DNA from: a virus
Length of the DNA: 42,444 bases
Direction: 5' to 3' (one strand)
IMG/VR virus record: IMGVR_UViG_3300012347_000185
Coordinates: 1 to 42,444 of that record
Shown: one piece after another, positions 24,601 through 42,444 of the stretch
Layout: each line of letters begins with the position of its first letter
Position numbering within the stretch: position 1 is the first letter of the stretch
Program-made: the position numbers and the translations under genes
Notes under the pieces: model-generated
Databases searched by the model: none
Told to the model about the DNA's origin: nothing
Seen by the model: the letters and a program-made list of their open reading frames with translations, nothing else

Positions 24601-25733
24601 CCAATGGTTCCCTGCGCCAGGTCCGTGCCCAGGCTGAGGCCATGACCTCGCTGGTGATCGCCTCCGGTGTCCTCTCCCTGTATGCCCAAGGGCGTATCCA
24701 AGGGGATGGCGCCTACGACGATTACAAGCAACAGAAGAACCGCACAGACGGTCCGCTGCCTGAGCCGTACACGATCAAGATGTCCGATGGTTCCACCTGG
24801 AGCTACCGTGGCTTTGATCCGCTGGCCACCCCTGTGAAGATCATGGTCAACGCCCTGCAGAGAATGGACCAGCTCCGTCTCAGGGAAGCTCAAGGAGAGT
24901 TCGTGGACAAGGAGGCTTACAAGCCCATCTTGGCTGCGATCACCGTGGGTTCCATGTCAATCGCTTCGGCTATCCGTGATGCCTCCCTCGTGGAAGGTGC
25001 AGATAACTTCGCCAAGTTCGTGAAGACGGCCTTCAACCCCGAAGAGGGTGAGAGTGCCTTCATCAAGATCCTGGGTGACAAGCTCTTCCTGCTAGTTCCT
25101 AACACGCTCCACAAGATCGCTAGGGACAATGATCCCCAGATCCGTGACCCTCAGACCTTCTGGCAGATGGTTGAGCAAAAGCTGCTTCGTCCTGTGGGTC
25201 TCGATGAGCCAGCAAAGACAGCCTTTGCCTATGACGTTCTGGGTAATACCCGCAAGATGTCCGATACCGGATCTCTTTGGAATGTCTTCTCGACTGCTTC
25301 GGTGGAAGAGAGAGCCAAGGGAATGAACGAGAAAGAGCAGTTCATCCTGACCGAGATGGATCGACTGTCTCGTGTCACAGGTGTCACCTTTAAGCCTCCG
25401 GTGAAAGCCAAGGAGATGGGTGATGCTGACATGCGGACGATCATGGCGACTGACGGCAAGCGAACCCTCTACGATGTCTGGCAGCAGAACTACAAGTCTC
25501 TGAAACCAGAGGATGTCCTGTACCCGATCCTCAAGGCTCCATTGCCTGAGGGGACCTTCAAGTACAGGGCAGCAAAGGTTGAAGAGGCCCAGGCTATCAT
25601 CAACGATCTTCAGAGTGCAGCTATGGCAATGACCATGCAGCAGGAACAGAAGGTTGTGGATAAGTTCATCTCACAAGAGTTGCTCAAGGCAAAGTCTAAA
25701 GCTGGCCTGTTTGACACCCCTCGACCATATTAA
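21603..25733 (+). CDS. Internal core protein (gp16 position) with N-terminal lysozyme/lytic transglycosylase-like domain
   Basis: 1376 aa. FLDFLGRAEGADYNTIVGG..F.DF..HP......STAAGKYQIL resembles lambda-type (GH104-like) muramidases. Confidence 0.88.
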   Translation: MATDIPGWAKEAEPQAIPSWASAPDNAAVPSWASAPAPAPQTRSQPVAQPAASPEANVKKFLDFLGRAEGADYNTIVGGSKFSDFRAHPRVVGLTTKEGPSTAAGKYQILGSTYDDIAPKIGVRDFSPDSQDKIALELIRRKGALEDIRNGNFDAAVGKLGGIWASLPSSPYSQPKRSAEWVAKELGSPTTVQYQNFAPVRQNVDPASLNKDQDWLRASELLYSFYERKPFQGTKDELAEWGKDSLGNFNFNLVSMAEIAYSLQSATQEEKEAFLFMMDTYDNTNFSLEGAGRAAKGIVTDPTNLVGLGTLGVGFIGKFAGKQAAKAGIRKLVLDSLARTGIGAGIQSGVVGAADSTIRQGIEVSAGRREEIDLSKVGVDAAIAGTAGVILGTAADAAVTKVVGAIKGRKAIDTPNVPGEAPKAPTDSDPNVSGVTPPVDPKSPTGLSPAEEIGLIQRQQDGRLPADEIVPNVGADVPKIDVPQSNTGLRTTRLTDEPVAPLSKVELAQQADVVVTQLRDIETKDLPAVLETLRTRSDLSREEIRVVDKAVQNYKNEVVVELATLRKERMALDAKTALSEPEVIRQQELNTRIEDLEARVGSAQLADDATGSMAGSILQDRQDPMNALKGVTVESIMAEKGVTKVEAEQVWAEMVGKAHLQSEGQKISAVYDDMATKALEADDLEGAMKASILKNRELDAKIEALAPKGASFVDKLTEFAISNVFSIKTIIINLIPSGMKTLVIPGLKAILNNPFEKATRAEAAASYSAMRSSFGAALNAAKSGFRYEQAILSRDGTRLVEGEMAMTGKLAGAWRIFPRILNASDEFLSRLNYDSFVAGKAAAEAAMEGTEKGLKGKALDDFISEASKKALDASMKPTSGDELVQPIINKGLNLGLTGEDLFKYVEREAVRDPQSLRKGNDEDALNFVRDVLYKRKFSGEGSMSKAALAYEDAMKKFPTLKLVIGQLFFRTPIRVFEEGIRLTPGLQFVAPNFMKDLAGANGSLRQVRAQAEAMTSLVIASGVLSLYAQGRIQGDGAYDDYKQQKNRTDGPLPEPYTIKMSDGSTWSYRGFDPLATPVKIMVNALQRMDQLRLREAQGEFVDKEAYKPILAAITVGSMSIASAIRDASLVEGADNFAKFVKTAFNPEEGESAFIKILGDKLFLLVPNTLHKIARDNDPQIRDPQTFWQMVEQKLLRPVGLDEPAKTAFAYDVLGNTRKMSDTGSLWNVFSTASVEERAKGMNEKEQFILTEMDRLSRVTGVTFKPPVKAKEMGDADMRTIMATDGKRTLYDVWQQNYKSLKPEDVLYPILKAPLPEGTFKYRAAKVEEAQAIINDLQSAAMAMTMQQEQKVVDKFISQELLKAKSKAGLFDTPRPY

Positions 25734-31809: not shown

Positions 31810-33471
31810 ATGACCCCATCCAAACATCCAGCCCTGGCAGACTTCAGGGTATTCATGTTCCTCGTGTGGAAACACCTTGGTCTCCCAGAGCCTACTCCGG
31901 TTCAATACGACATTGCCCATTACCTACAGAACGGACCTAGACGATCCGTCATCGAGGCCTTTCGAGGGGTAGGCAAGTCTTGGATCACCTCAGCGTTTGT
32001 CTGCTGGTTGATCCTGAACAACCCCCAGTTGAAGATCCTGGTGGTGTCTGCCTCCAAGGAACGAGCTGATGCCTTCTCCACATTCGTCAAGAGGTTGATC
32101 AACGAGATCCCCATGCTGCAACACCTGAAGCCTCAGGATGGCCAGCGGGACTCTGTGATCGCCTTTGATGTGGGACCAGCTACCCCAGACCACAGTCCCT
32201 CGGTGAAATCCGTGGGTATCACTGGGCAGATCACGGGTTCCCGTGCAGACATCCTGATTGCTGATGACGTGGAGGTACCCAACAACTCCTCCACCCAGAT
32301 GATGCGGGATAAACTCTCGGAGGCTGTCAAGGAATTCGATGCGATCTTGAAGCCTGGTGGCCGTATCCTGTACCTCGGTACCCCTCAGACAGAGATGTCC
32401 CTGTACAACCAGCTCCCAGAGCGTGGCTATGAGGTCCGTATCTGGCCAGCCCTGTACCCAGAGTTGCAGCAAGTGATCAAGTACCAGGGCAAACTGGCCC
32501 CGATGATCACCAAGGCACTGGAGGCTTCTGCAGATAACGCTGGGATGCCTACGGACTCCAAGCGATTCGACGAGGCAGACCTGCTGGAGCGGAGAGCTTC
32601 CTACGGTAAGGCAGGCTTTGCCCTCCAGTTCCAGCTCGACACGTCTCTGAGTGATGCCGATCGATACCCTCTGAAGGTCTCAGACCTGATCATCCAGAAT
32701 CTGGGTCCTACCATGGGGCACCTGAAGTTGGCATGGGCTGCTGCACCAGAACTGTGCATCAATGACATCCCCAATGTGGCTCTCACAGGGGACAGGTACT
32801 ACCGACCCATGTGGCACTCTGACGATATGTCTGAGTACACCGGGTCTGTCATGTCCATCGACCCCTCTGGTCGTGGTAAGGACGAGACAGGCTATGCCGT
32901 GGTCAAGGCTCTGGCTGGTAACCTGTTTCTCACAGAAGCTGGAGGGATCACCGGAGGCTATGAGCTGGAGACACTCGAAGCTCTGGCCTATGCAGCCAAG
33001 AGGAATCAGGTCAAGTACATCGTCATCGAGGCTAACTTCGGTGATGGTATGTTCACCCAGCTCCTCAAGCCTGTCCTTCAGAGGATCTACCCCTGCACTG
33101 TGGAGGAGGTAAAGCACTCCACCCAGAAGGAAGCCCGTATCATCGACACCCTTGAACCTGTGATGTCCACACATAGACTCATAGTGGACCAGAGGGTGAT
33201 CCAGAAGGACTTCGACACAGCTAAGGATGTCAAGTACTCCCTGTTCTACCAACTCACCCGTATCACCAGAGACAGGGGAGCCTTGGTTCATGACGATAGG
33301 TTGGATGCCTTGGCTATTGCTGTGAACTACTGGACCGAGACCATGGCCAGAGACAACGACAGAGCAGCCTCAGATATCCGTGGGACAGCCATAGATAAGG
33401 AACTGAAGAAGTTCATGGGGAGTGTCCTAGGGATGAAACCTAAGGCAACCTCATGGATGTCTAGATCCTGA
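31810..33471 (+). CDS. Terminase large subunit (T7 gp19-like)
   Basis: 553 aa. Walker A-like FRGVGKS, ILIADDVE Walker B. Last gene of the structural block. Confidence 0.93.
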   Translation: MTPSKHPALADFRVFMFLVWKHLGLPEPTPVQYDIAHYLQNGPRRSVIEAFRGVGKSWITSAFVCWLILNNPQLKILVVSASKERADAFSTFVKRLINEIPMLQHLKPQDGQRDSVIAFDVGPATPDHSPSVKSVGITGQITGSRADILIADDVEVPNNSSTQMMRDKLSEAVKEFDAILKPGGRILYLGTPQTEMSLYNQLPERGYEVRIWPALYPELQQVIKYQGKLAPMITKALEASADNAGMPTDSKRFDEADLLERRASYGKAGFALQFQLDTSLSDADRYPLKVSDLIIQNLGPTMGHLKLAWAAAPELCINDIPNVALTGDRYYRPMWHSDDMSEYTGSVMSIDPSGRGKDETGYAVVKALAGNLFLTEAGGITGGYELETLEALAYAAKRNQVKYIVIEANFGDGMFTQLLKPVLQRIYPCTVEEVKHSTQKEARIIDTLEPVMSTHRLIVDQRVIQKDFDTAKDVKYSLFYQLTRITRDRGALVHDDRLDALAIAVNYWTETMARDNDRAASDIRGTAIDKELKKFMGSVLGMKPKATSWMSRS

Positions 33472-33479
33472 GGAGATCT

Positions 33480-33499
33480 ATGGTTGCCCAATTGGAAAG
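33480..33499 (+). promoter_or_regulatory. Candidate phage-RNAP promoter, copy 4 (ATGGTTGCCCAATTGGAAAG)
   Basis: 9 nt after the terminase stop. Confidence 0.55.
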
Positions 33500-33754: not shown

Positions 33755-34174
33755 ATGGATATACCAAAGGATAGACCAGAGGCTTTGTCTCTAGGTATGG
33801 ATATTTATTACGGTAATGAGTGTAAACATTGTGGTACCACAGTAAAGAGAGTCAAGAAGTATGACTGCCTAGAGTGTCACAGGGTTGCTCGTAAAGGCTA
33901 TCTCAAGGATTTCCGCAAGACTCCTAAGGGGAGGGCTGTTAGACGCTCTCAGAAGATCCTTAGAGACCGTACACAACGACAGGCCATGCCTCCTTGGGCT
34001 AACCGAGAGAAGATCCTAGAGATTTATCTGAAGGCTCGTGAGATGGGGATGCATGTGGATCACATCGTTCCGTTGAACCATGGGTTGGTCTGTGGGTTAC
34101 ACAACGAGTTCAACCTACAGCTTCTTCCGCCAGACGAGAACATTGCCAAGAGTAATCTCTTTGAGGTGTCTTGA
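33755..34174 (+). CDS. HNH endonuclease (second copy, unrelated in sequence to the first)
   Basis: 139 aa. Cys pairs CKHC...CLEC, then HVDHIVPLNHGLVCGLHNEFNLQLLPPDENIAKSN (H-N-N/H core). The surrounding segment is AT-richer. Confidence 0.85.
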   Translation: MDIPKDRPEALSLGMDIYYGNECKHCGTTVKRVKKYDCLECHRVARKGYLKDFRKTPKGRAVRRSQKILRDRTQRQAMPPWANREKILEIYLKAREMGMHVDHIVPLNHGLVCGLHNEFNLQLLPPDENIAKSNLFEVS

Positions 34175-34440
34175 GGGGTCCAGAATAATTTGGTAGAAAA
34201 ATATGTGACCTATACCGCATATTGTCGAGCGGCTGAGTCCCCCTCGGCCCCTACCGTGTGCGCCCGGGCGATCCACGCACGTTGACGGGCGCGGTATTGC
34301 CTGCCCGATACCGCCCACGTTGACACGCGAGGTGTCCCAAGGGGCTGTAAGTTGTTGATTTCATTGGAGTTTCACTAGCTCAGAAAGCTAGTTGGCACCA
34401 TGCGCGTGACATCCTGCGGGTGTGCGAGGTTGTCCCAAGG

Positions 34441-34473
34441 TTATCCACAGGACTTATCCACAGGTTATGCACT
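34441..34473 (+). promoter_or_regulatory. DnaA-box cluster: two perfect TTATCCACA boxes plus one degenerate box
   Basis: TTATCCACA at 34441-34449 and 34454-34462, and TTATGCACT at 34465-34473. All are direct repeats in non-coding DNA. Confidence 0.5.
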
Positions 34474-34543
34474 GTGTTGGTGCGTTTGCATCAGTTCGTT
34501 TTTACTGTGTTTTTATACAGTACTTTGAGACATCCTCAGGTCA

Positions 34544-34683
34544 CACCTCAAGCTCACCTCAAGCTCACCTCAAGCTCACCACCAGACCACCACCAGATCA
34601 CCTCAAGCTCACCACCAGGTGACACCTCAGGACCTCCACAGATCTGCCCTCAGATCACCTCAAGCTCACCACCAGGTGACACC
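34544..34683 (+). repeat. 11-bp phased tandem array (CACCTCAAGCT / CACCACCAGNT) with an embedded 31-bp perfect direct repeat
   Basis: Seven contiguous 11-mers at 34544-34620. GATCACCTCAAGCTCACCACCAGGTGACACC occurs at 34596-34626 and again at 34653-34683. Confidence 0.9.
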
Positions 34684-34686
34684 CTC

Positions 34687-34725
34687 AAGCCTCAAGCACT
34701 CCACCAGTGCCTGGGGCTTTTTTTT
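34687..34725 (+). terminator. Candidate intrinsic terminator closing the repeat array
   Basis: AAGCC..GCACT-CCACC-AGTGC..GGCTT two-tier stem, immediately followed by T8. Confidence 0.5.
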
Positions 34726-34843
34726 CTGATCTAAGGGTTTGTCCTAATAACTTTTTTTTCATCGGTCGGTTTTTGCCTGTTTTTCTCGATAAAATTCAGC
34801 TCATGCACAGCACACCGCACAGTGCAAACCTGGAGATCACCTC

Positions 34844-35047
34844 ATGAGCTACACTATCACCCGCAAGGTACTTAACGCGATCAAGCCCTACACTGTCACC
34901 ACCCGCGACAGCGATGGCGACACCTTCAAACACAAAGCCTGGAGCACACGTGAGGCTCTGGCCTGGGCTAAGTGCTACGGGCAGGGCTGGGGCACCACTA
35001 CAATTCAAACCCGCACAGGTCGCTTTGTGGCCTCTGTTACCCGCTGA
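34844..35047 (+). CDS. Early hypothetical protein (67 aa)
   Basis: ATG preceded by CCTGGAGATCACCTC. First ORF after the non-coding hub. Confidence 0.6.
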   Translation: MSYTITRKVLNAIKPYTVTTRDSDGDTFKHKAWSTREALAWAKCYGQGWGTTTIQTRTGRFVASVTR

Positions 35048-36266: not shown

Positions 36267-36487
36267 GCACCAGGGCACACCCTCCAACCTATTTTGGAGA
36301 CTCTGTGAGGATCTCCTATCATGGCCCAGGGCCTGATCACGACCTGGTGGTGCAGCGGTGGTCTGATGTCTCTGGAGGGTGGCACGACGTGCGGACCTTC
36401 GATCACACCTTCGATTTTGCCTGGTCTGACGCGAGGCTGTACGCTGCAGCTCTGGCCTCCAGCATGCGCCGCGAGGTGAACCCGTGA
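36263..36487 (+). CDS. Early hypothetical protein (74 aa)
   Basis: ATGA overlap with the upstream gene. Confidence 0.5.
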   Translation: MSTRAHPPTYFGDSVRISYHGPGPDHDLVVQRWSDVSGGWHDVRTFDHTFDFAWSDARLYAAALASSMRREVNP

Positions 36488-36813
36488 GCGCCGATCTCCT
36501 GGCCCAGCTCCAGGCCTTCGCACAGGCCCATGGTGGCAAGCTCAGGACAGGCCCACAGGCCCGGAAACCCGAGAGTTGTCCACAGGCCCCATGCGAGGGT
36601 TGTCCACAGGCCCTCACGGGTGGGTCTGCCCTCGCGCCCTCACGCGCACAGGTATGCGCCCACGCACCTGCAGGCACCCGCGAGAGCGCCCGAGAGGCCC
36701 ACGCAGGGAGTCCGCCTTGCATAGGGCGCACCCAGCCCGTCCAAAAGCCCCAAAACCGCGACCCGTGGCTTGACTACACGGACGACTATTCACTGTGGAA
36801 GCAGGGTCAATGA
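36484..36813 (+). CDS. Doubtful ORF (109 aa) in a very GC-rich segment
   Basis: GTGA overlap with the upstream gene. Several frames are open on both strands here, and the segment contains DNA-level repeats, so coding status is uncertain. Confidence 0.35.
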   Translation: MSADLLAQLQAFAQAHGGKLRTGPQARKPESCPQAPCEGCPQALTGGSALAPSRAQVCAHAPAGTRESAREAHAGSPPCIGRTQPVQKPQNRDPWLDYTDDYSLWKQGQ

Positions 36814-38235: not shown

Positions 38236-38264
38236 TTGACACAGAGTCGCACCTGAATCATGAT
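38236..38264 (+). promoter_or_regulatory. Candidate sigma70-type promoter TTGACA-N17-CATGAT for the regulator/integrase operon
   Basis: Perfect -35, 17-nt spacer, 4/6 match at -10. About 30 nt upstream of the MarR-like start. Confidence 0.45.
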
Positions 38265-38294: not shown

Positions 38295-38642
38295 ATGGTT
38301 GTGCCCCTGAAGGATGCAATTCAGCTAATTCAAGGGATCTCCCAAATAGAACCGGAGATGCCCTTGCAGCAACTACATGTACTACTCCTCATTGCGGAAG
38401 CAGGGGAGGGGACATCACTTACAGACCTGGCCAAGAAAGCAGGCATAGGTCTAGCAACTGCGTCTCGTTATGTTTCCGCACTAGGCAAACAGAACAGGCA
38501 CAGGCAGGAGGGGCTACTTCTAGTAGAATCCTTCGAGGACCCTATGGAAAGGCGAAAAAAGATAATTCGCCTGACAGGTAAGGGTAAATCCGCACTCATG
38601 AAACTGATAGGAGAACTGAATGCCCATCTACCAAAGGGGTGA
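38295..38642 (+). CDS. MarR-family-like winged-helix transcriptional regulator (candidate repressor)
   Basis: 115 aa. SLTDLAKKAGIGLATASRYVSAL...GLLLVESFEDPMERRKKIIRLTGKG fits the MarR HTH plus wing pattern. Confidence 0.75.
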   Translation: MVVPLKDAIQLIQGISQIEPEMPLQQLHVLLLIAEAGEGTSLTDLAKKAGIGLATASRYVSALGKQNRHRQEGLLLVESFEDPMERRKKIIRLTGKGKSALMKLIGELNAHLPKG

Positions 38643-39657
38643 TGCCTTCATGGTGTCAGTCGGAAGTAAGGGAAACCGCTACCGACAGTCCTTCAAGACC
38701 AAACAGGAAGCTGAACTGGCAGAACTGCAGGCATTGACCCGCCTGAAGGCCTCAGGAAGCCCTCTAGAAGCCTCTACAAGCCCCCCAATTGATGTAGTTA
38801 AGGGCTACACACTCAAGGATGCCCACGACCTCACCTGGAGGCTCTACTGGAAAGGTGACAAGGGCAAGGGTTGCCACGAGGTGACCATCAACTGTGTCTT
38901 TCGGACGATCCCGAGTCAGACACTGCTGACCGATATCACTCCCGCAATGGTCCTTGAGGCCATCGAAGAATGGGAGGATGAGGGCAACTCAGGCTCTACG
39001 GTCAACCGCAAGGTGTCTCACATCTCCAAGATGCTGAACACCGCAGCGGAGCAGGGGTGGATCAATGCTGTCCCCAAGCTGCCCCGCAGGAAGCCTGGCA
39101 AGCACCGCATCCGGTGGATGGCCGAGCAGGAGGAGCTGAGGGTCCTGAACGCCTGCACCCAGTTGGGTCTGGACGATCTGAGGGACTTCATCGTGGTGGC
39201 CATCGACACTGGCTTCCGTAGGTCGGAGCTGCTGGGCCTCGTGTCCAACGACTTCGTCAACGGGATGGTCCAGCTCCACGCTGGGTCCACCAAGAGCGAC
39301 AAGGCGAGGGCTGTCCCGGCTACCCGTAGGGTGTCCGAGATCCTCACCCGCAGGTCTGTCAACAGGAAGCTCTTCGACTTCCAGTTCCACACCCTGAGGG
39401 CACGTTGGCTGTCCCTGAAGTCCCACCTAGGGATGGACGATGACACCCAGTTCGTCATCCACATGCTGCGCCATACGTGTGCATCTCGGATGGTCCAGAG
39501 GGGTGTCAACCTGGCCGTGGTTCAGCAGTGGATGGGTCACTCCAACATCGCCACCACGCTACGGTATGCCCACCTTGCACCTGACAGCCTGGCCATCGGA
39601 CGTGAAGCCCTTGAGCAAGTATCCACAGTTCCTCTCTTGAGGGCTGTGAACTGTTGA
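38620..39657 (+). CDS. int: Tyrosine integrase/recombinase
   Basis: 345 aa with GGAG RBS. Catalytic-domain signature: TGFRRSELLGL (Arg), HMLRHTCASRMVQRG (H-x-x-R), GHSNIATTLRYAHL (Tyr). Confidence 0.9.
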   Translation: MPIYQRGDAFMVSVGSKGNRYRQSFKTKQEAELAELQALTRLKASGSPLEASTSPPIDVVKGYTLKDAHDLTWRLYWKGDKGKGCHEVTINCVFRTIPSQTLLTDITPAMVLEAIEEWEDEGNSGSTVNRKVSHISKMLNTAAEQGWINAVPKLPRRKPGKHRIRWMAEQEELRVLNACTQLGLDDLRDFIVVAIDTGFRRSELLGLVSNDFVNGMVQLHAGSTKSDKARAVPATRRVSEILTRRSVNRKLFDFQFHTLRARWLSLKSHLGMDDDTQFVIHMLRHTCASRMVQRGVNLAVVQQWMGHSNIATTLRYAHLAPDSLAIGREALEQVSTVPLLRAVNC

Positions 39658-39750: not shown

Positions 39751-39808
39751 AGCTTGAGGTGCTAGTAACTTAACCGTTGTGGAGGTTCGAGTCCTCTCGA
39801 CCGCACCA
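39751..39808 (+). other. Candidate attP core: 3' two-thirds of a tRNA-Leu(GAG)-like gene
   Basis: Anticodon loop TTGAGGT (39754-39760), GCTAG stem strand, long variable arm, T arm GGAGG-TTCGAGT-CCTCT, acceptor strand CGACCGC, then A and CCA. There is no matching 5' acceptor strand or D arm upstream. Confidence 0.6.
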
Positions 39809-40004: not shown

Positions 40005-40024
40005 ATGGTTGCACAATTGGATAG
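40005..40024 (+). promoter_or_regulatory. Candidate phage-RNAP promoter, copy 6 (ATGGTTGCACAATTGGATAG)
   Basis: 110 nt upstream of the RNAP start codon. Confidence 0.55.
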
Positions 40025-40133: not shown

Positions 40134-42444
40134 ATGCAAAACTTTAACCTTGAAGAAGACTTGATGTCACTCCAGATTCAACTGGAGGAGGGGATGACCC
40201 AACGAGGCGCTGAGAAGTACCTCCGGGATGTCTCCAAGGCCATCTCTGCTGGCCGTGAGGAGTCCACCGCATACGGGACAACCATCCTGTCCCACCGCCT
40301 GGAGACCCTCTCCAAGGCCATCGACGAGTGGAAGCAGGTCACCTCCAAGGGTTCCGCTGGGGTGCGCTCTGCGACCTACCCCAAGGTCAAGGACGTAGAC
40401 AGCCGTTTGCTGGCCTTCCTGACCCTCAAGAGCGTCCTGTCGGGCATCTCCAGCCTCAGGACCCTCCAGTTCGTCGGAGTGGCCATAGGGTCGGCTGTGG
40501 AGGACGAGCTGCGGTTCAGCCTGATCCGGGAGACCGAGCGCAAGGCCTACGAGAAGCTGGTCATCGGTGCCAAGAAGCGCACCTCAGGTCACTACCGCCA
40601 CATGTACGCCGTGCGTCAGGCAGATCGTCTCGAGGATGGCTGGAAGCGGTGGGCCCGGACTGACCGCCTCCATGTGGGCATCAAGCTCCTCGACCTGTGC
40701 ATCCAGTCCGTGGGTCTGGTCGAGCTAACCCACCAGAAGGTTGATAAAGATCAATCGATCAAGTACGTGAAGGCCCTGCCCGAGACCCTCGACTGGATCG
40801 AGAAAAAGAACGAGGTCACCCAGTTCCTGCGCCCCGTCTATGAACCCATGGTCGTGATCCCCCGTGATTGGACCACGCCCTTCAACGGGGGGTACATCAG
40901 CTCCAACATCAAGCCCTTGAAAATGGTCAAGACCAAAAACAAGGCCTACCTAGACGAGCTGAAGAACACCGACATGCCCATCGTCTACGAGGCCGTGAAC
41001 GCCCTGCAGAGGACCGCATGGCAGATCAACAGCCAGGTGCTGGAGGTCATGGAGGAACTGTGGGCCACAGGGTCTGAGATCGCAGGGTTGCCTCCTCGTG
41101 AGGGTCTCCCATTGCCCACCAAGCCTCACGACATCGACTCGAATGAGGAAGCCAAGCGTGAGTACCGCATCAAGGCGGCAAAGATCCACGTTCAGAACCT
41201 CTCCCTGCTGGGCCAGAGGATCGGCTTCAACATGGCTCTGGGAATCGCTCGTCGCTACGAGAAGTTCCGCAAGATCCACATGCCCTACCAGTTGGACTTC
41301 CGTGGTCGGATCTACGCGATCCCCCACCTGAATCCACAGGGGGCAGACTTTCAGAAGGCGCTCCTGCGGTTCGCCAATGGGAAACCGTTGGGGTCTGAGG
41401 GTTGGAAATGGTTGGCAATCCACGGTGCCAACGTTGCAGGCTACGACAAGGCCAGCTTTGAAGACCGTGTCAATTGGGTACAAGACAATGAAGATGAAAT
41501 TATCGCTATCGCATCAGACCCTTACAACAACCGAGGGTGGTGTTCTTCTGTGGGAGATGTGGAGATTGACAAGCCCTGGCAGTTCCTTGCCTTTTGCTTC
41601 GAGTGGGCCGGTTTCACCGAGCATGGTGAGTCGTTCGTATCGAAGCTGCCCGTGGCTATGGACGGTTCATGCTCTGGCATCCAGCACTTCTCGGCAATGC
41701 TACGCGATGAAGTCGGAGGATCTGCAGTCAACCTCGTCCCCAGGGAGCTTCCAGCAGATGTCTACCAGCTCGTGGCCAACAAGGTTATGGAACAAGTTGA
41801 GCACGATATTCTGCACGGCACCGAGGACGAGCTGAAGCACACCGAAGCCGGGGTTGCCTACGTCAAGCAGGGGACCAAGGCCATCGCTGCCCAGTGGAAG
41901 GAGTTTGGGATCACCCGCAAGGTGACCAAGCGATCCGTCATGACGCTGGCCTACGGGTCCAAGGAGTACGGCTTCAAGGAGCAGCTCATGGAGGACATCC
42001 TGCGTCCCGCCAAGCAGTCCAACAAGCCCTTCCCCTTCCAGGGTGACGGCTACCAGGCTGCTCAGTACATGGCCAAGGCGATCTGGGTCTCCGTGAACAA
42101 GGTGCTGGTGAAAGCTGGCGAGGCCATGAAGTGGCTCCAAGGTGCCGCCTCTCTGGCAGCATCTGAGGAACTCCCTGTCCGCTGGTCTACCGCCGTGGGC
42201 TTCCCCGTGATGCAGGCCTATGCCGATCTGGAGAAGCGCAAGGTCAAGACCGCGATCAACGGGAAGCTGGTGTACCTGACCATGTACCAAGACAAGGACA
42301 ATCTGGACCGCCGCAAGCAGTCCTCAGGGATCGCCCCCAACTTTGTCCACTCCTGCGATGCAGCACACATGATGCTGACCGTGACGAGGGCCAAGCAGGC
42401 AGGCATCGACAACTTCGCCATGATCCACGACTCGTTCGGGACCA
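40134..42444 (+). CDS. T7-like single-subunit RNA polymerase, N-terminal and central part (runs off the window; continues at base 56)
   Basis: MQNFNLEED... Contains YQLDFRGRIY, PWQFLAFCFEW, MDGSCSGIQHFSAMLRD, TRKVTKRSVMTLAYG, HDSFGT. Joined with 56..258 it gives an 837-aa protein. Confidence 0.95.
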   Translation, partial: MQNFNLEEDLMSLQIQLEEGMTQRGAEKYLRDVSKAISAGREESTAYGTTILSHRLETLSKAIDEWKQVTSKGSAGVRSATYPKVKDVDSRLLAFLTLKSVLSGISSLRTLQFVGVAIGSAVEDELRFSLIRETERKAYEKLVIGAKKRTSGHYRHMYAVRQADRLEDGWKRWARTDRLHVGIKLLDLCIQSVGLVELTHQKVDKDQSIKYVKALPETLDWIEKKNEVTQFLRPVYEPMVVIPRDWTTPFNGGYISSNIKPLKMVKTKNKAYLDELKNTDMPIVYEAVNALQRTAWQINSQVLEVMEELWATGSEIAGLPPREGLPLPTKPHDIDSNEEAKREYRIKAAKIHVQNLSLLGQRIGFNMALGIARRYEKFRKIHMPYQLDFRGRIYAIPHLNPQGADFQKALLRFANGKPLGSEGWKWLAIHGANVAGYDKASFEDRVNWVQDNEDEIIAIASDPYNNRGWCSSVGDVEIDKPWQFLAFCFEWAGFTEHGESFVSKLPVAMDGSCSGIQHFSAMLRDEVGGSAVNLVPRELPADVYQLVANKVMEQVEHDILHGTEDELKHTEAGVAYVKQGTKAIAAQWKEFGITRKVTKRSVMTLAYGSKEYGFKEQLMEDILRPAKQSNKPFPFQGDGYQAAQYMAKAIWVSVNKVLVKAGEAMKWLQGAASLAASEELPVRWSTAVGFPVMQAYADLEKRKVKTAINGKLVYLTMYQDKDNLDRRKQSSGIAPNFVHSCDAAHMMLTVTRAKQAGIDNFAMIHDSFGT
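42390..42444 (+). repeat. 55-nt terminal overlap identical to bases 1-55 (circular-assembly closure)
   Basis: Direct comparison of both ends shows every base identical. Confidence 0.98.

Follow-up and report, generated by a model that had tools for sequence, protein, structure and literature searches.

Consensus DnaA boxes at the predicted genome-end junction of a T7-like phage and their possible role in genome-end handling

Results

The window, i.e., the whole 42,444-nt stretch of viral DNA analysed here, is a circularised assembly, and the DnaA boxes considered below sit in its genome-end junction. Both the circularity and the location at a terminal repeat and concatemer junction were overlooked in the first-pass annotation, which a model had made from the letters of the sequence. 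The junction region and the adjoining early region contain the following features.

33477–33499, plus strand: phage-RNAP promoter-like element (putative promoter) just after terL, positioned like T7 phiOR
34157–34190, plus strand: short repeats CTTGAGGTG / TTGAGGGGTC, left of the predicted terminal repeat and inverse of the right-side array
~34214–34490, plus strand: predicted direct terminal repeat (DTR) of ~277 bp, a single collapsed copy in the circular assembly, placed by homology
34348–34361, minus strand: conserved TAAGTTGTTGATTT, the reverse complement of which (AATCAACAACTTA) fits the IHF consensus WATCAANNNNTTR (a consensus match only)
34375–34391, no strand: palindrome CTAGCT-N5-AGCTAG within the repeat, also present in relatives and in the Ralstonia phage DTR
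34441–34449, plus strand: DnaA box 1, TTATCCACA(GG), perfect
34454–34462, plus strand: DnaA box 2, TTATCCACA(GG), perfect, 13 bp after box 1 (start to start)
34465–34473, plus strand: DnaA box 3, TTATGCACT, degenerate, 11 bp after box 2, one mismatch to TTATNCACA
34490–34501, plus strand: ATCAGTTCGTTT, resembling the class II pause/terminator of the T7 concatemer junction and predicted to form the right edge of the DTR
34503–34522, no strand: perfect LexA SOS box TACTGT-N8-ACAGTA, TACTGTGTTTTTATACAGTA (1 found, 0.00 expected)
34544–34700, plus strand: 11-bp tandem array of CACCTCAAGCT and variants, counterpart of the T7 short repeats right of the terminal repeat
34699–34725, plus strand: terminator-like hairpin followed by a T-run, with homologous GGGGCTTTTTTT in relatives and the Ralstonia phage
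34761–34795, plus strand: second ATCGGTCGGTTT motif with TAAAAT 17 nt later, candidate first early host promoter
36576–36610, plus strand: second pair of boxes, two copies of TTGTCCACAGG 24 bp apart, a tandem duplication in an early ORF

The region is built like the concatemer junctions of T7 and T3, with a promoter after terL, short repeats, a repeat start of the ...TCCCCC type, an ATC(N)GTT right edge and inverted short-repeat arrays followed by early promoters. The features of the T7 group were all found, i.e., left-end homology, a predicted repeat of fitting length (~160–280 bp in the group) downstream of terL, an ATCAGTT edge and flanking arrays of short repeats. The element after terL belongs to a promoter-like family, GGTTGC(A/C)CAATTGGA, with five copies (278, 2133, 11299, 33482, and 40007) that are all intergenic, and from 33477–33499 it would direct phage transcription rightward into the junction. 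The left boundary of the DTR was placed by homology to the annotated 281-bp DTR of Ralstonia phage vRsoP-WF2 (AAAAAT and 11 nt, then ACCGC...TCCCCC), and the predicted right boundary was set at the ATCAGTT motif. ATCAGTT at 34490 matches six of the seven positions of the T7 class II sequence ATCTGTT, which starts at the first base after the DTR in T7 (161) and T3 (232), and in T7, T3, phiEap-1, A7, and vRsoP-WF2 alike the DTR end adjoins an ATC(T/A)GT motif. The extended ATCAGTTCGTTT-type motif has only two matches in the window, both in the junction region, and is found one to three times per junction in those relatives where the pattern matched. The T7 junction sequence is described in the literature as a class II pause/terminator, of which ATCAGTT is the putative counterpart here. 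The left flank of the repeat consists of CTTGAGG-type repeats, CTTGAGGTG being the reverse complement of CACCTCAAG, and the right flank of the CACCTCAAGCT array (period 11 and 6.4 copies at 34544–34613 by TRF, with the repeat family reaching ~34700), comparable to the CCTAAAG arrays that follow position 161 in T7. The first early ORF starts at 34844, downstream of the candidate promoter at 34761–34795, and the spacing motif-17 nt-TAnAAT/TACACT on which this predicted promoter is based is found in the window and in relatives L122, L125, L131, and L136. The TAAGTTGTTGATTT element is kept in nearly all relatives. Unlike the window, T7 and T3 have no DnaA boxes in their repeats and carry ATCTGTT rather than ATCAGTT, and the window has in addition the LexA box after the motif.

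The three boxes occupy positions 228–260 of the predicted 277-bp repeat, i.e., they lie in its last 50 bp, in non-coding DNA, and the array stops 16 nt before ATCAGTT. The first-pass annotation had reported two perfect boxes 13 bp apart and a degenerate third, and coordinates and sequences are as described: two sites agree fully with the consensus TT(A/T)TNCACA and one departs from it at a single position, with spacings of 13 and 11 bp that provide the clustering and phasing associated with cooperative binding. A comparison with shuffled sequence, which had been proposed as a check, placed the boxes beyond chance. The perfect 9-mer TTATCCACA occurs three times in the whole window against 0.19 expected, a number reached in 0 of 100 shuffles, and there are 17 DnaA-box matches with one mismatch allowed (7.4 expected) and four copies of TTRTCCACAGG (0.08 expected). 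The boxes at 34441–34473 are thus real, consensus-matching and non-random predicted sites for host DnaA. No DnaA homologue was found below E ~1 when Thermus and Competibacter DnaA were searched with phmmer against all six-frame ORFs of the whole window, and tRNA and Rfam scans gave no matches. The exact double box TTATCCACAGG-NN-TTATCCACAGG is present in dnaA-flanked clusters (dnaA-dnaN, oriC-type) of Thermus, Competibacter, and an Oligoflexia MAG as well as in >120 unrelated viral contigs; in the genome collection it was mostly found in Streptomyces among the matches listed. Because the same double box occurs in bacterial oriC-type loci and in these viral contigs, a conserved host reader is a better explanation than a phage-specific one.

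All four copies claimed earlier as one 11-mer family, including TTGTCCACA at 36576 and 36600, have the coordinates, the GG extension and the plus-strand orientation that were described. The second pair is however a 24-bp tandem duplication within a stretch of 43 codons inserted in frame into a conserved small early ORF (36484–36813), and this insertion is missing in L122 and L136 and present in L125 as TTATCCACA / TTATTCACA. Since the second pair is coding and born of duplication, the claim of a single functional family is weakened, and the pair is not an independent intergenic site family.

The segment at 34494–34530, which had been regarded as T-rich and easily melted, is only moderately AT-rich (GC 0.33–0.35 in 40-nt windows) and is made of two elements, the junction-type motif ATCAGTTCGTTT at 34490–34501 and the perfect SOS box TACTGTGTTTTTATACAGTA at 34503–34522. 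The latter is a predicted LexA operator with a perfect 20-mer consensus and no clear sigma-70 promoter overlapping it. Strict CTGT-N8-ACAG sites are enriched in the relatives, with 8 in 59 kb of junctions vs. 4 in 347 kb of coding sequence, and double SOS boxes are found in L167, L178–180, and L189. A consensus scan of 34440–34540 gave no sigma-70-type promoter, nor was a consistent -35/-10 seen at the first ATC motif in the relatives. Two further ideas, that the TTGGCAC elements are sigma-54 sites and that palindromes other than the LexA-type and Fur-like ones can be assigned to particular proteins, were considered and dropped as too weak.

A search of related phages for the boxes, also proposed earlier, covered 59 distinct TerL relatives, with the junction taken as the 1 kb after terL (59 kb in total) and 347 kb of coding sequence for comparison. 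The boxes are conserved in position, although the array is absent from 43 of the 59 relatives. Perfect TTATNCACA is found 47 times in the junctions vs. 8 times in coding sequence (~35-fold enriched), and 45 of the 47 junction copies are on the plus strand. The earlier description of the sites as canonical, non-random and biased in orientation is borne out by these counts. At least two boxes are present at 16 loci. There are 14 distinct clusters of 2–5 boxes each, most commonly spaced 11 bp apart (14/25 intervals), with 21–22 bp also found, and single-mismatch variants in them are few and scattered (three at position 5, which is N in the consensus, two at position 3, and four elsewhere). In L125 the boxes are kept while the flanks vary; its alignment with the window has 2-nt and 5-nt indels in 34500–34530, and at the position of box 3 it carries TTATGCACA, which is within the consensus. 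The boxes of L123 and L128 lie directly after the first ATC motif and would therefore fall outside the terminal repeat. In many close relatives the slot is filled by other palindromes, including LexA-type and Fur-like ones. As T7, T3, and many close relatives are without boxes, the basic T7 cycle does not require the array. Among the relatives, the occurrence of the boxes is not matched strictly by that of any early ORF; the best association (8 of 12 box-positive vs. 6 of 39 box-negative loci) is probably phylogenetic. At the DNA level only a short unrelated Pseudomonas match was found among cultured phages, and IMG/VR scans that required two boxes together with an exact ATCTGTT were uninformative, giving 30 and 43 heterogeneous stretches of which only five share any protein with the window.

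Similar arrays are present in cultured, strictly lytic Studiervirinae, phages of Enterobacterales. There are five perfect boxes in the 195-bp DTR of phiEap-1 (Eapunavirus), four perfect and five degenerate boxes in the 177-bp DTR of Shigella phage A7 (Berlinvirus), and boxes just upstream of the ATCTGTT of Klebsiella phage cp31 (Przondovirus). As predicted for the window, the arrays are inside the DTR, ending ~18–22 nt before ATCTGT, and the spacing is 11–30 bp; the orientation is opposite to that of the window in phiEap-1 and A7 and mixed in cp31. No description of these three arrays was found in the literature searched. A single BLAST match lies inside the PhageTerm-predicted repeat of Stenotrophomonas phage Siara, and matches in Arthrobacter phages lie ~80 nt from a record end. 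Arrays that could be read in general as docking sites are seen in several T7-like genera (including strictly lytic Klebsiella, Enterobacter, and Shigella phages) and in T5-like phages, with Siara as a further candidate.

The injection-stop region (iss) in the left terminal repeat of T5, with DnaA boxes of which the first was noted in 1987, offers the closest precedent (Davison, 2020, bioRxiv 10.1101/866236). Twenty-five T5-like phages carry paired boxes in this repeat, and binding of membrane DnaA to stop injection was put forward as a hypothesis only (bioRxiv 10.1101/866236). In both cases TT(A/T)TNCACA boxes are paired a few bp apart in a non-coding part of a terminal repeat, as is found here within the predicted 277-bp repeat. 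T5 is likewise a lytic phage with its own replisome, its boxes are located among repeats and palindromes and kept across relatives, and they are, like those of the window, considered an unlikely origin. In contrast, T5 has eight boxes in two inverted-repeat units, 5–9 kb from the end of a 10-kb repeat, whereas the window and its relatives have 2–5 direct boxes (three in the window) in a predicted repeat of ~277 bp, with a T7-type junction motif 16 nt away. No inverted-repeat units of the T5 IRC/IRD type were found around the boxes in the window.

Discussion

The explanation that best accounts for the boxes, to which a probability of roughly 0.4 is assigned, is that they form a docking array for host DnaA on the terminal repeat, with a role in events at the genome ends. 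DnaA would oligomerise on boxes about one helical turn apart and coat the inner end of each repeat, i.e., both ends of the virion DNA and every concatemer junction, and this host-protein cap would act in transactions of the genome end. The cap might capture or anchor the DNA that enters first, pair the repeats, or mark off the junction for pausing, cutting and packaging, and the term genome-end transaction covers several such candidate sub-mechanisms. The array would neither fire DnaA-dependent replication nor serve as a lysogeny switch. A roadblock strengthening the junction pause was downgraded as the sole mechanism, the boxes of the cultured phages all being upstream of the motif and inside the repeat.

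Control of early transcription by the state of the host is an unlikely alternative. A weak host-RNAP promoter at the edge of the repeat would be controlled jointly by DnaA and LexA, with a T-rich -35 hexamer GTTCGT (34494–34499), a -10 hexamer TACAGT (34516–34521), the boxes at about -55 to -87 and the LexA box over the spacer and the -10, so that the first early transcription, and hence genome internalisation and prophage induction, would be tied to the replication and SOS status of the host. The perfect SOS box directly downstream of the boxes and the enrichment of SOS boxes, including double ones, in the junctions of the relatives point this way, and the LexA-type, Fur-like and other operator-like palindromes in the same slot of box-less relatives fit a regulatory reading about as well as a genome-end one. 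In >120 unrelated phage contigs the double box is directly upstream of a TTGACA-17-TACGCT promoter, a 2026 preprint describes the T7 junction class II sequence as a context-dependent sigma-70 promoter, and the phage, with its MarR-like and integrase genes, is of the temperate T7-like type. On the other hand the hexamers are weak, without TGn and not constantly spaced in the relatives, in line with the negative promoter scan; the terminator-like site at 34699–34725 is placed between the boundary and the early genes; and strictly lytic phages share the arrays, with a motif after the boxes that is not promoter-like in phiEap-1 and cp31.

The main idea of the first-pass annotation, an auxiliary DnaA-dependent origin near the left end, now appears distinctly unlikely. 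At such an origin DnaA would melt the AT-richer DNA and the phage helicase-primase would load. The boxes are tandem, of one orientation and helically phased like chromosomal oriC-type clusters, and the double box is identical to that in the dnaA-dnaN region of Thermus and Competibacter; GC falls to 0.33–0.35 just downstream. The low-affinity arrays of E. coli oriC have 2-bp gaps and a phasing of ~11 bp, and in T7 secondary origins lie close to the termini, at phiOL and phiOR. However, the 60 bp downstream of the boxes, where an unwinding element should lie, are held by ATCAGTTCGTTT and the LexA box, and no DnaA-trios or 13-mer unwinding repeats are visible in the sequence after the boxes. Retention with a fixed polarity is not seen either, since the array is missing or replaced by other palindromes in many close relatives and its inversion in phiEap-1 and A7 and mixed state in cp31 leave no fixed unwinding side. 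T7-type replisomes initiate from RNAP transcripts, no Rep or helicase-loader family was matched among the early-region ORFs scanned, and the 11-mer array mirrors the short terminal repeats of T7 rather than iterons. The window differs from a chromosomal oriC in that an unwinding element, DnaA-trios, a dnaA/dnaN neighbourhood and a helicase loader (the last among the early-region ORFs scanned) are missing and in that relatives can do without the array. Host DnaA is also used by phage DNA in the lambda pR/ori region and at oriR of the P1 plasmid-prophage, where a phage initiator (O or RepA) works together with the boxes, either at an internal origin or at a promoter; those of the window are terminal and without an initiator gene among the early-region ORFs screened.

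A link between the boxes and lysogeny, suggested earlier from the integrase and repressor-like genes, is not supported by the relatives either. The window carries a lysogeny cassette consisting of a wHTH (MarR-like) gene at 38295–38642, an integrase gene at 38620–39657 and, ahead of the RNAP gene, a site at 40007 that resembles a phage promoter. The same cassette, a MarR-like regulator and an integrase upstream of the RNAP gene, is described for the temperate T7-like phage LUZ100, the TerL of which is 62% identical, and DnaA boxes are not mentioned in the passages of that report covered here (PMC10134795). The boxes do not follow the cassette: L142 has five boxes without an integrase or MarR module, four integrase-positive relatives are without boxes, and strictly lytic phiEap-1, A7, and cp31 carry the same arrays. 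Because the boxes are located in the predicted DTR by the junction signal and are found also in lytic T7 relatives, genome-end handling is likelier than a lysogeny-linked origin.

It is improbable, although conceivable, that the array is specifically a T5-style injection stop or anchor, in which membrane-located DnaA grips the boxes of the first-entering repeat and entry is paused or the DNA tethered. In T7 the left end enters first, and the boxes of the window are ~230–260 bp from the predicted left end, with the two clusters at ~0.23 kb and ~2.4 kb from that end. This is a narrower version of genome-end handling, and the second pair, 2.1 kb further in, would perhaps be gripped too. The T5 iss model and the paired boxes of 25 T5-like phages speak for it; that model is however itself a hypothesis, the LexA-type and Fur-like substitutes in relatives point to proteins that are not membrane proteins, and the second pair, which L122 and L136 lack, is a duplication within coding sequence.

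Still less probable is that the 11-mers are sites for a phage protein (e.g., the small terminase or an early protein), or simply the T7-like short repeats of this lineage, and that their likeness to DnaA boxes is incidental. T7-group junctions are indeed full of lineage-specific short repeats, and the common GG extension could mean a longer recognition site; the GG is however also found at R1 of E. coli oriC (TTATCCACAGGG). The perfect 9/9 consensus recurs where other repeats have diverged, i.e., in the freshwater lineage, Eapunavirus, Berlinvirus, Przondovirus, and T5-like phages, the identical double box is found in bacterial dnaA-flanked clusters, and there is no strictly co-occurring early ORF that could supply the reader. 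A decoy role, in which hundreds of replicated genomes, each with two repeats of 2–5 predicted high-affinity boxes, titrate DnaA and shut down host initiation, is very improbable, as it leaves the fixed position by the junction motif unexplained, has no evident benefit for phages that degrade host DNA and does not fit the absence of boxes in many relatives.

T7-type phages are the textbook example of phages that replicate and package their DNA independently of host initiation factors. Phased and conserved boxes in terminal repeats, next to the pause/cleavage signal, imply an input of host factors at the genome ends for which current models make no provision. It is possible, but on balance doubtful, that many phages with terminally redundant linear genomes build DnaA docking arrays into their terminal repeats and that DnaA is an unrecognised host factor of phage genome ends. 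If so, DnaA would help to capture entering DNA, to pair the repeats, or to cut and package the junction in phages that are taken to be independent of it, and LexA-type or Fur-like sites in the same slot would suggest, as a general principle, that the phage terminus is capped by a host protein that binds tightly. For annotation, DnaA boxes alone do not justify calling an origin. Lytic phages that are easy to grow (phiEap-1, KP32-like Przondoviruses, and Berlinvirus A7) share this design, so the proposal is directly testable, and tests in these phages could also settle the DnaA hypothesis for the two-step injection of T5.

DnaA Boxes of the Window

In the genome-end junction, the concatemer-junction region after terL, consensus DnaA boxes form a conserved array, and several T7-like lineages share this design. 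Re-reading the sequence bore out the boxes of the first-pass annotation at 34441, 34454, 36576, and 36600, in coordinates as well as in sequence.

Features of the window
31810-33471: TerL gene
33477-33499: phage-promoter-like element directly after terL, one of a five-copy family
33755-34174: endonuclease VII/HNH-like gene
34441, + strand: DnaA box 1, perfect TTATCCACA, GG extension
34454, + strand: DnaA box 2, perfect TTATCCACA, GG extension
34465, + strand: DnaA box 3, TTATGCACT, GG extension
Early region: DUF7227 gene
36576 and 36600, + strand: second pair, TTGTCCACA twice, GG extension on both
38295-38642: MarR/IclR-like wHTH gene
38620-39657: tyrosine integrase gene
From 40107: single-subunit RNA polymerase (RNAP) gene

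Chance does not explain the boxes: in the window perfect TTATCCACA was found 3 times against 0.19 expected and TTRTCCACAGG 4 times against 0.08, and TTATCCACA with at most one mismatch 17 times against 7.4. A third perfect TTATCCACA (25655-25663, - strand) stands alone inside the 1376-aa internal-core gene and has probably arisen by chance. The first cluster lies in non-coding DNA; alignment with the closest relative reveals frame-breaking indels in 34500-34530.

The four sites had been proposed as one family, and their matching sequences, shared GG and common strand stand; the second pair is no independent evidence, as 36576 and 36600 each make up one half of a 24-bp tandem duplication inside an ORF. 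This small early ORF (36484-36813) has N- and C-terminal parts that four phages conserve, and the duplication belongs to an insertion of 43 codons, in frame, GC-rich and of low complexity, which occurs in the window and in its closest relative, L125, and is missing from the related loci L122 and L136. The L125 counterparts are TTATCCACA and TTATTCACA, changes that alter residues (C to Y, P to S) yet keep the DnaA consensus, a suggestive pattern in numbers too small to count. The second pair is possibly functional.

The window ends (1-55 and 42390-42444) overlap exactly by 55 bp, so the window is a closed circular assembly and the genome about 42.39 kb long, with the RNAP gene spanning the artificial ends. 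In T7-type genomes the physical ends fall between the last late and the first early gene, and the box-bearing non-coding stretch (34175-34843) sits between these genes. The gene content is T7-like plus a lysogeny cassette. The closest TerLs are those of Ralstonia phages (up to 77.5%), Bordetella BB8, and a Limnohabitans phage, and TerL of the temperate T7-like phage LUZ100 is 62% identical. A sigma-70-like TTGACA-17-CATGAT (38236-38264), directly upstream of the MarR-like gene, has the same position as promoter P3 of LUZ100 (PMC10134795). Directly 3' of the integrase gene, GTGGAGGTTCGAGTCCTCTCGACCGCACCA (39775-39808) matches a tRNA in its 3' part, with T-arm, acceptor stem and CCA, and is a likely attP core; ARAGORN found no complete tRNA there.

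Conservation and Occurrence in Other Phages

A TerL-based search gave 80 related IMG/VR loci, and the counts use the 59 non-identical ones with enough downstream DNA. Boxes concentrate in their junctions: perfect TTATNCACA has 47 copies in 59 kb (the stretches 300-1300 nt downstream of terL) and 8 in 347 kb of coding sequence upstream, an enrichment of about 35-fold, with 45/47 junction copies on the + strand and at least two boxes in 16/59 loci. The 14 distinct clusters hold 2-5 boxes each, most commonly spaced by 11 bp (14 of 25 intervals), with 21-22 bp also present. Single-mismatch variants are few and scattered, three at position 5, where TT(A/T)TNCACA has its N, two at position 3, and the remaining four at positions 1, 2, and 7. 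L125 repeats the box layout of the window exactly, second pair included. The initial observation was right, with stronger support than the sequence alone could give.

A BLAST search of cultured phages with three 11-mers in tandem returned 139 records, including T5-like phages (hits about 5.5-6.3 kb from a record end) and T7-like phages of about 40 kb (hits 100-175 nt from record ends); three of the T7-like phages were verified. Phage phiEap-1 (Eapunavirus) has five perfect TGTGGATAA within its 195-bp repeat, in Shigella phage A7 (Berlinvirus) four perfect and five degenerate boxes fill most of the 177-bp repeat, and in Klebsiella cp31 (Przondovirus) two boxes in forward and three in inverted orientation stand right before ATCTGTT. 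The terminal repeats of T7 and T3 contain none, and box orientation varies between T7-like lineages. The BLAST hits also placed tandem DnaA-box-like arrays near the termini of other, unrelated phages, in Arthrobacter phages about 80 nt from a record end and in Stenotrophomonas phage Siara at 556-587, within a repeat predicted by PhageTerm, and in some microviruses (gokushoviruses).

Anatomy of the Predicted Terminal Repeat and Junction

The annotated 281-bp repeat of Ralstonia phage vRsoP-WF2 is preceded by AAAAATTTGAAAGCCCC, starts with ACTCGAAATTCGACG...TTCCCCCC and has the A of ATCAGTTTGC as its last base. The window homologue of its left end is AAAAATATGTGACCTAT followed, across the boundary, by ACCGCATATTGTCGAG...TCCCCC, which places the left boundary at 34214. 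At the right end, ATC(T/A)GT abuts the repeat in every phage with checkable termini.

Right ends of terminal repeats
T7: 160 bp; ATCTGTT from 161
T3: 231 bp (annotated); ATCTGTT from 232
phiEap-1: 195 bp (exact end overlap); ...gtgttcc, boundary, tATCTGTT
Shigella A7: 177 bp; right end is the A of ATCTGTA
Ralstonia vRsoP-WF2: 281 bp (annotated); right end is the A of ATCAGTT

T7 ATCTGTT is known from the literature as a class II pause/terminator acting in the concatemer junction. In the window the extended motif ATC(A/G)GTnnGTTT, a match to ATCTGTT of T7 and T3, is confined to 34490-34501 and 34761-34772; relatives in which this pattern matched have 1-3 copies in each junction. From the left-end homology and the motif abutting the right end in the checked phages, a terminal repeat of 277 bp (34214-34490) is predicted, of which the boxes would take up positions 228-260, stopping 16 nt short of ATCAGTT.

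The rest of the T7 junction plan is also found: the promoter-like element, short repeats of inverse orientation on the two sides (left CTTGAGG-type, right an 11-bp CACCTCAAGCT array), a terminator-like site, and the second ATC motif (34761-34772), followed after 17 nt by a -10-like TAAAAT right before the first early ORF, a spacing kept in four relatives. GGTTGC(A/C)CAATTGGA has five intergenic copies (278, 2133, 11299, 33482, and 40007) and is probably a phage RNAP promoter; the post-terL copy (33482) has a position similar to T7 phiOR, and that at 40007 is directly upstream of the RNAP gene, as described for LUZ100 (PMC10134795). Within the predicted repeat, TAAGTTGTTGATTT (34348-34361) is kept in nearly all relatives and, read as the reverse complement, matches the consensus for IHF, WATCAANNNNTTR; after it comes CTAGCT-N5-AGCTAG (34375-34391), a palindrome that is likewise conserved.

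The T-rich segment behind the boxes (34494-34530) had been taken as easily melted; its T-run is present, but instead of an unwinding element it comprises the T-run of the junction motif and a perfect LexA SOS box, TACTGTGTTTTTATACAGTA (34503-34522). The junctions of relatives (59 kb) contain strict CTGT-N8-ACAG 8 times and their coding sequence (347 kb) 4 times, and loci L167, L178-180, and L189 have tandem double LexA boxes. Relatives without DnaA boxes hold other palindromes in the slot directly upstream of the first ATC motif, which the boxes fill in the window (GTTGT-N7-ACAAC, TTAGT...ACTAA, Fur-box-like GAGAATCATTCTC, double LexA boxes), and the slot therefore appears to be a variable site for DNA-binding proteins, with DnaA as one occupant. 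In L129, L140, L144, L156, and L170, palindromes resembling Fur boxes (GAGAATCATTCTC; AATGATAATCATTCTCATT in L156) border the first junction motif, on its upstream side in L129 and on its downstream side in L140 and L144, with 4-5 mismatches to the 19-mer Fur consensus.

Discussion

With high confidence, judged from sequence comparison, host DnaA is the predicted reader of the boxes. Exact TTATCCACAGG-NN-TTATCCACAGG occurs in oriC-type dnaA-dnaN box clusters of Thermus, Competibacter, and an Oligoflexia MAG, and in more than 120 IMG/VR contigs with nothing else common to the window; no DnaA-like protein was found encoded in the window, no early ORF co-occurs strictly with the boxes among relatives, and the box repeat stays at the universal DnaA consensus while other junction short repeats vary by lineage. 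In the unrelated contigs (L001-L120) whose contexts were inspected, the identical double box mostly lies directly after a stop codon, as in L018 (13700-14535) behind an FmdB-like Zn-ribbon gene, about 700 bp from a contig end bearing an HNH gene, and in most is followed by an inverted box and a TTGACA-17-TACGCT promoter.

The array may tentatively be regarded, with a probability of about 0.4, as a host DnaA docking site on the terminal repeat that serves genome-end transactions. DnaA docked on these boxes could capture or anchor the entering genome end, pair the terminal repeats, or mark the junction for pausing, cutting, and packaging; here we infer DnaA binding and function, as well as the exact repeat boundaries. 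The closest precedent is T5, in whose relatives the left terminal repeat has paired consensus DnaA boxes at the injection-stop region; membrane-bound DnaA was hypothesized to arrest DNA entry, and an origin role was argued against (Davison, 2020, bioRxiv 10.1101/866236).

A host promoter at the repeat boundary under DnaA and LexA control is the main rival, though an unlikely one: the SOS box beside the junction motif speaks for it, as do the double boxes lying near promoters in an unrelated phage family, but a recognisable promoter was not found, none clearly overlapping the SOS box at 34503-34522, and the boxes occur in lytic phages. The alternative origin initially suggested is more doubtful still, as there is no unwinding element, boxes are not kept in close relatives and polarity is not fixed between lineages. 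Nor is the proposed tie to the integrase and repressor genes supported, as L142, a related locus reaching the RNAP gene, has five boxes and no integrase or MarR gene, four integrase-positive relatives lack boxes, and lytic phages carry them.

The reading thus moves from an alternative origin or lysogeny device to a host-factor array of the terminal repeat. Among the papers searched, none reports DnaA boxes from the terminal repeats of T7-like phages. As a kind, boxes of this sort in the terminal repeats of phages are already known and poorly understood, and the window adds a T7-type case, moderately surprising for such phages, for which cultured relatives allow the role of the terminal-repeat boxes to be tested directly.
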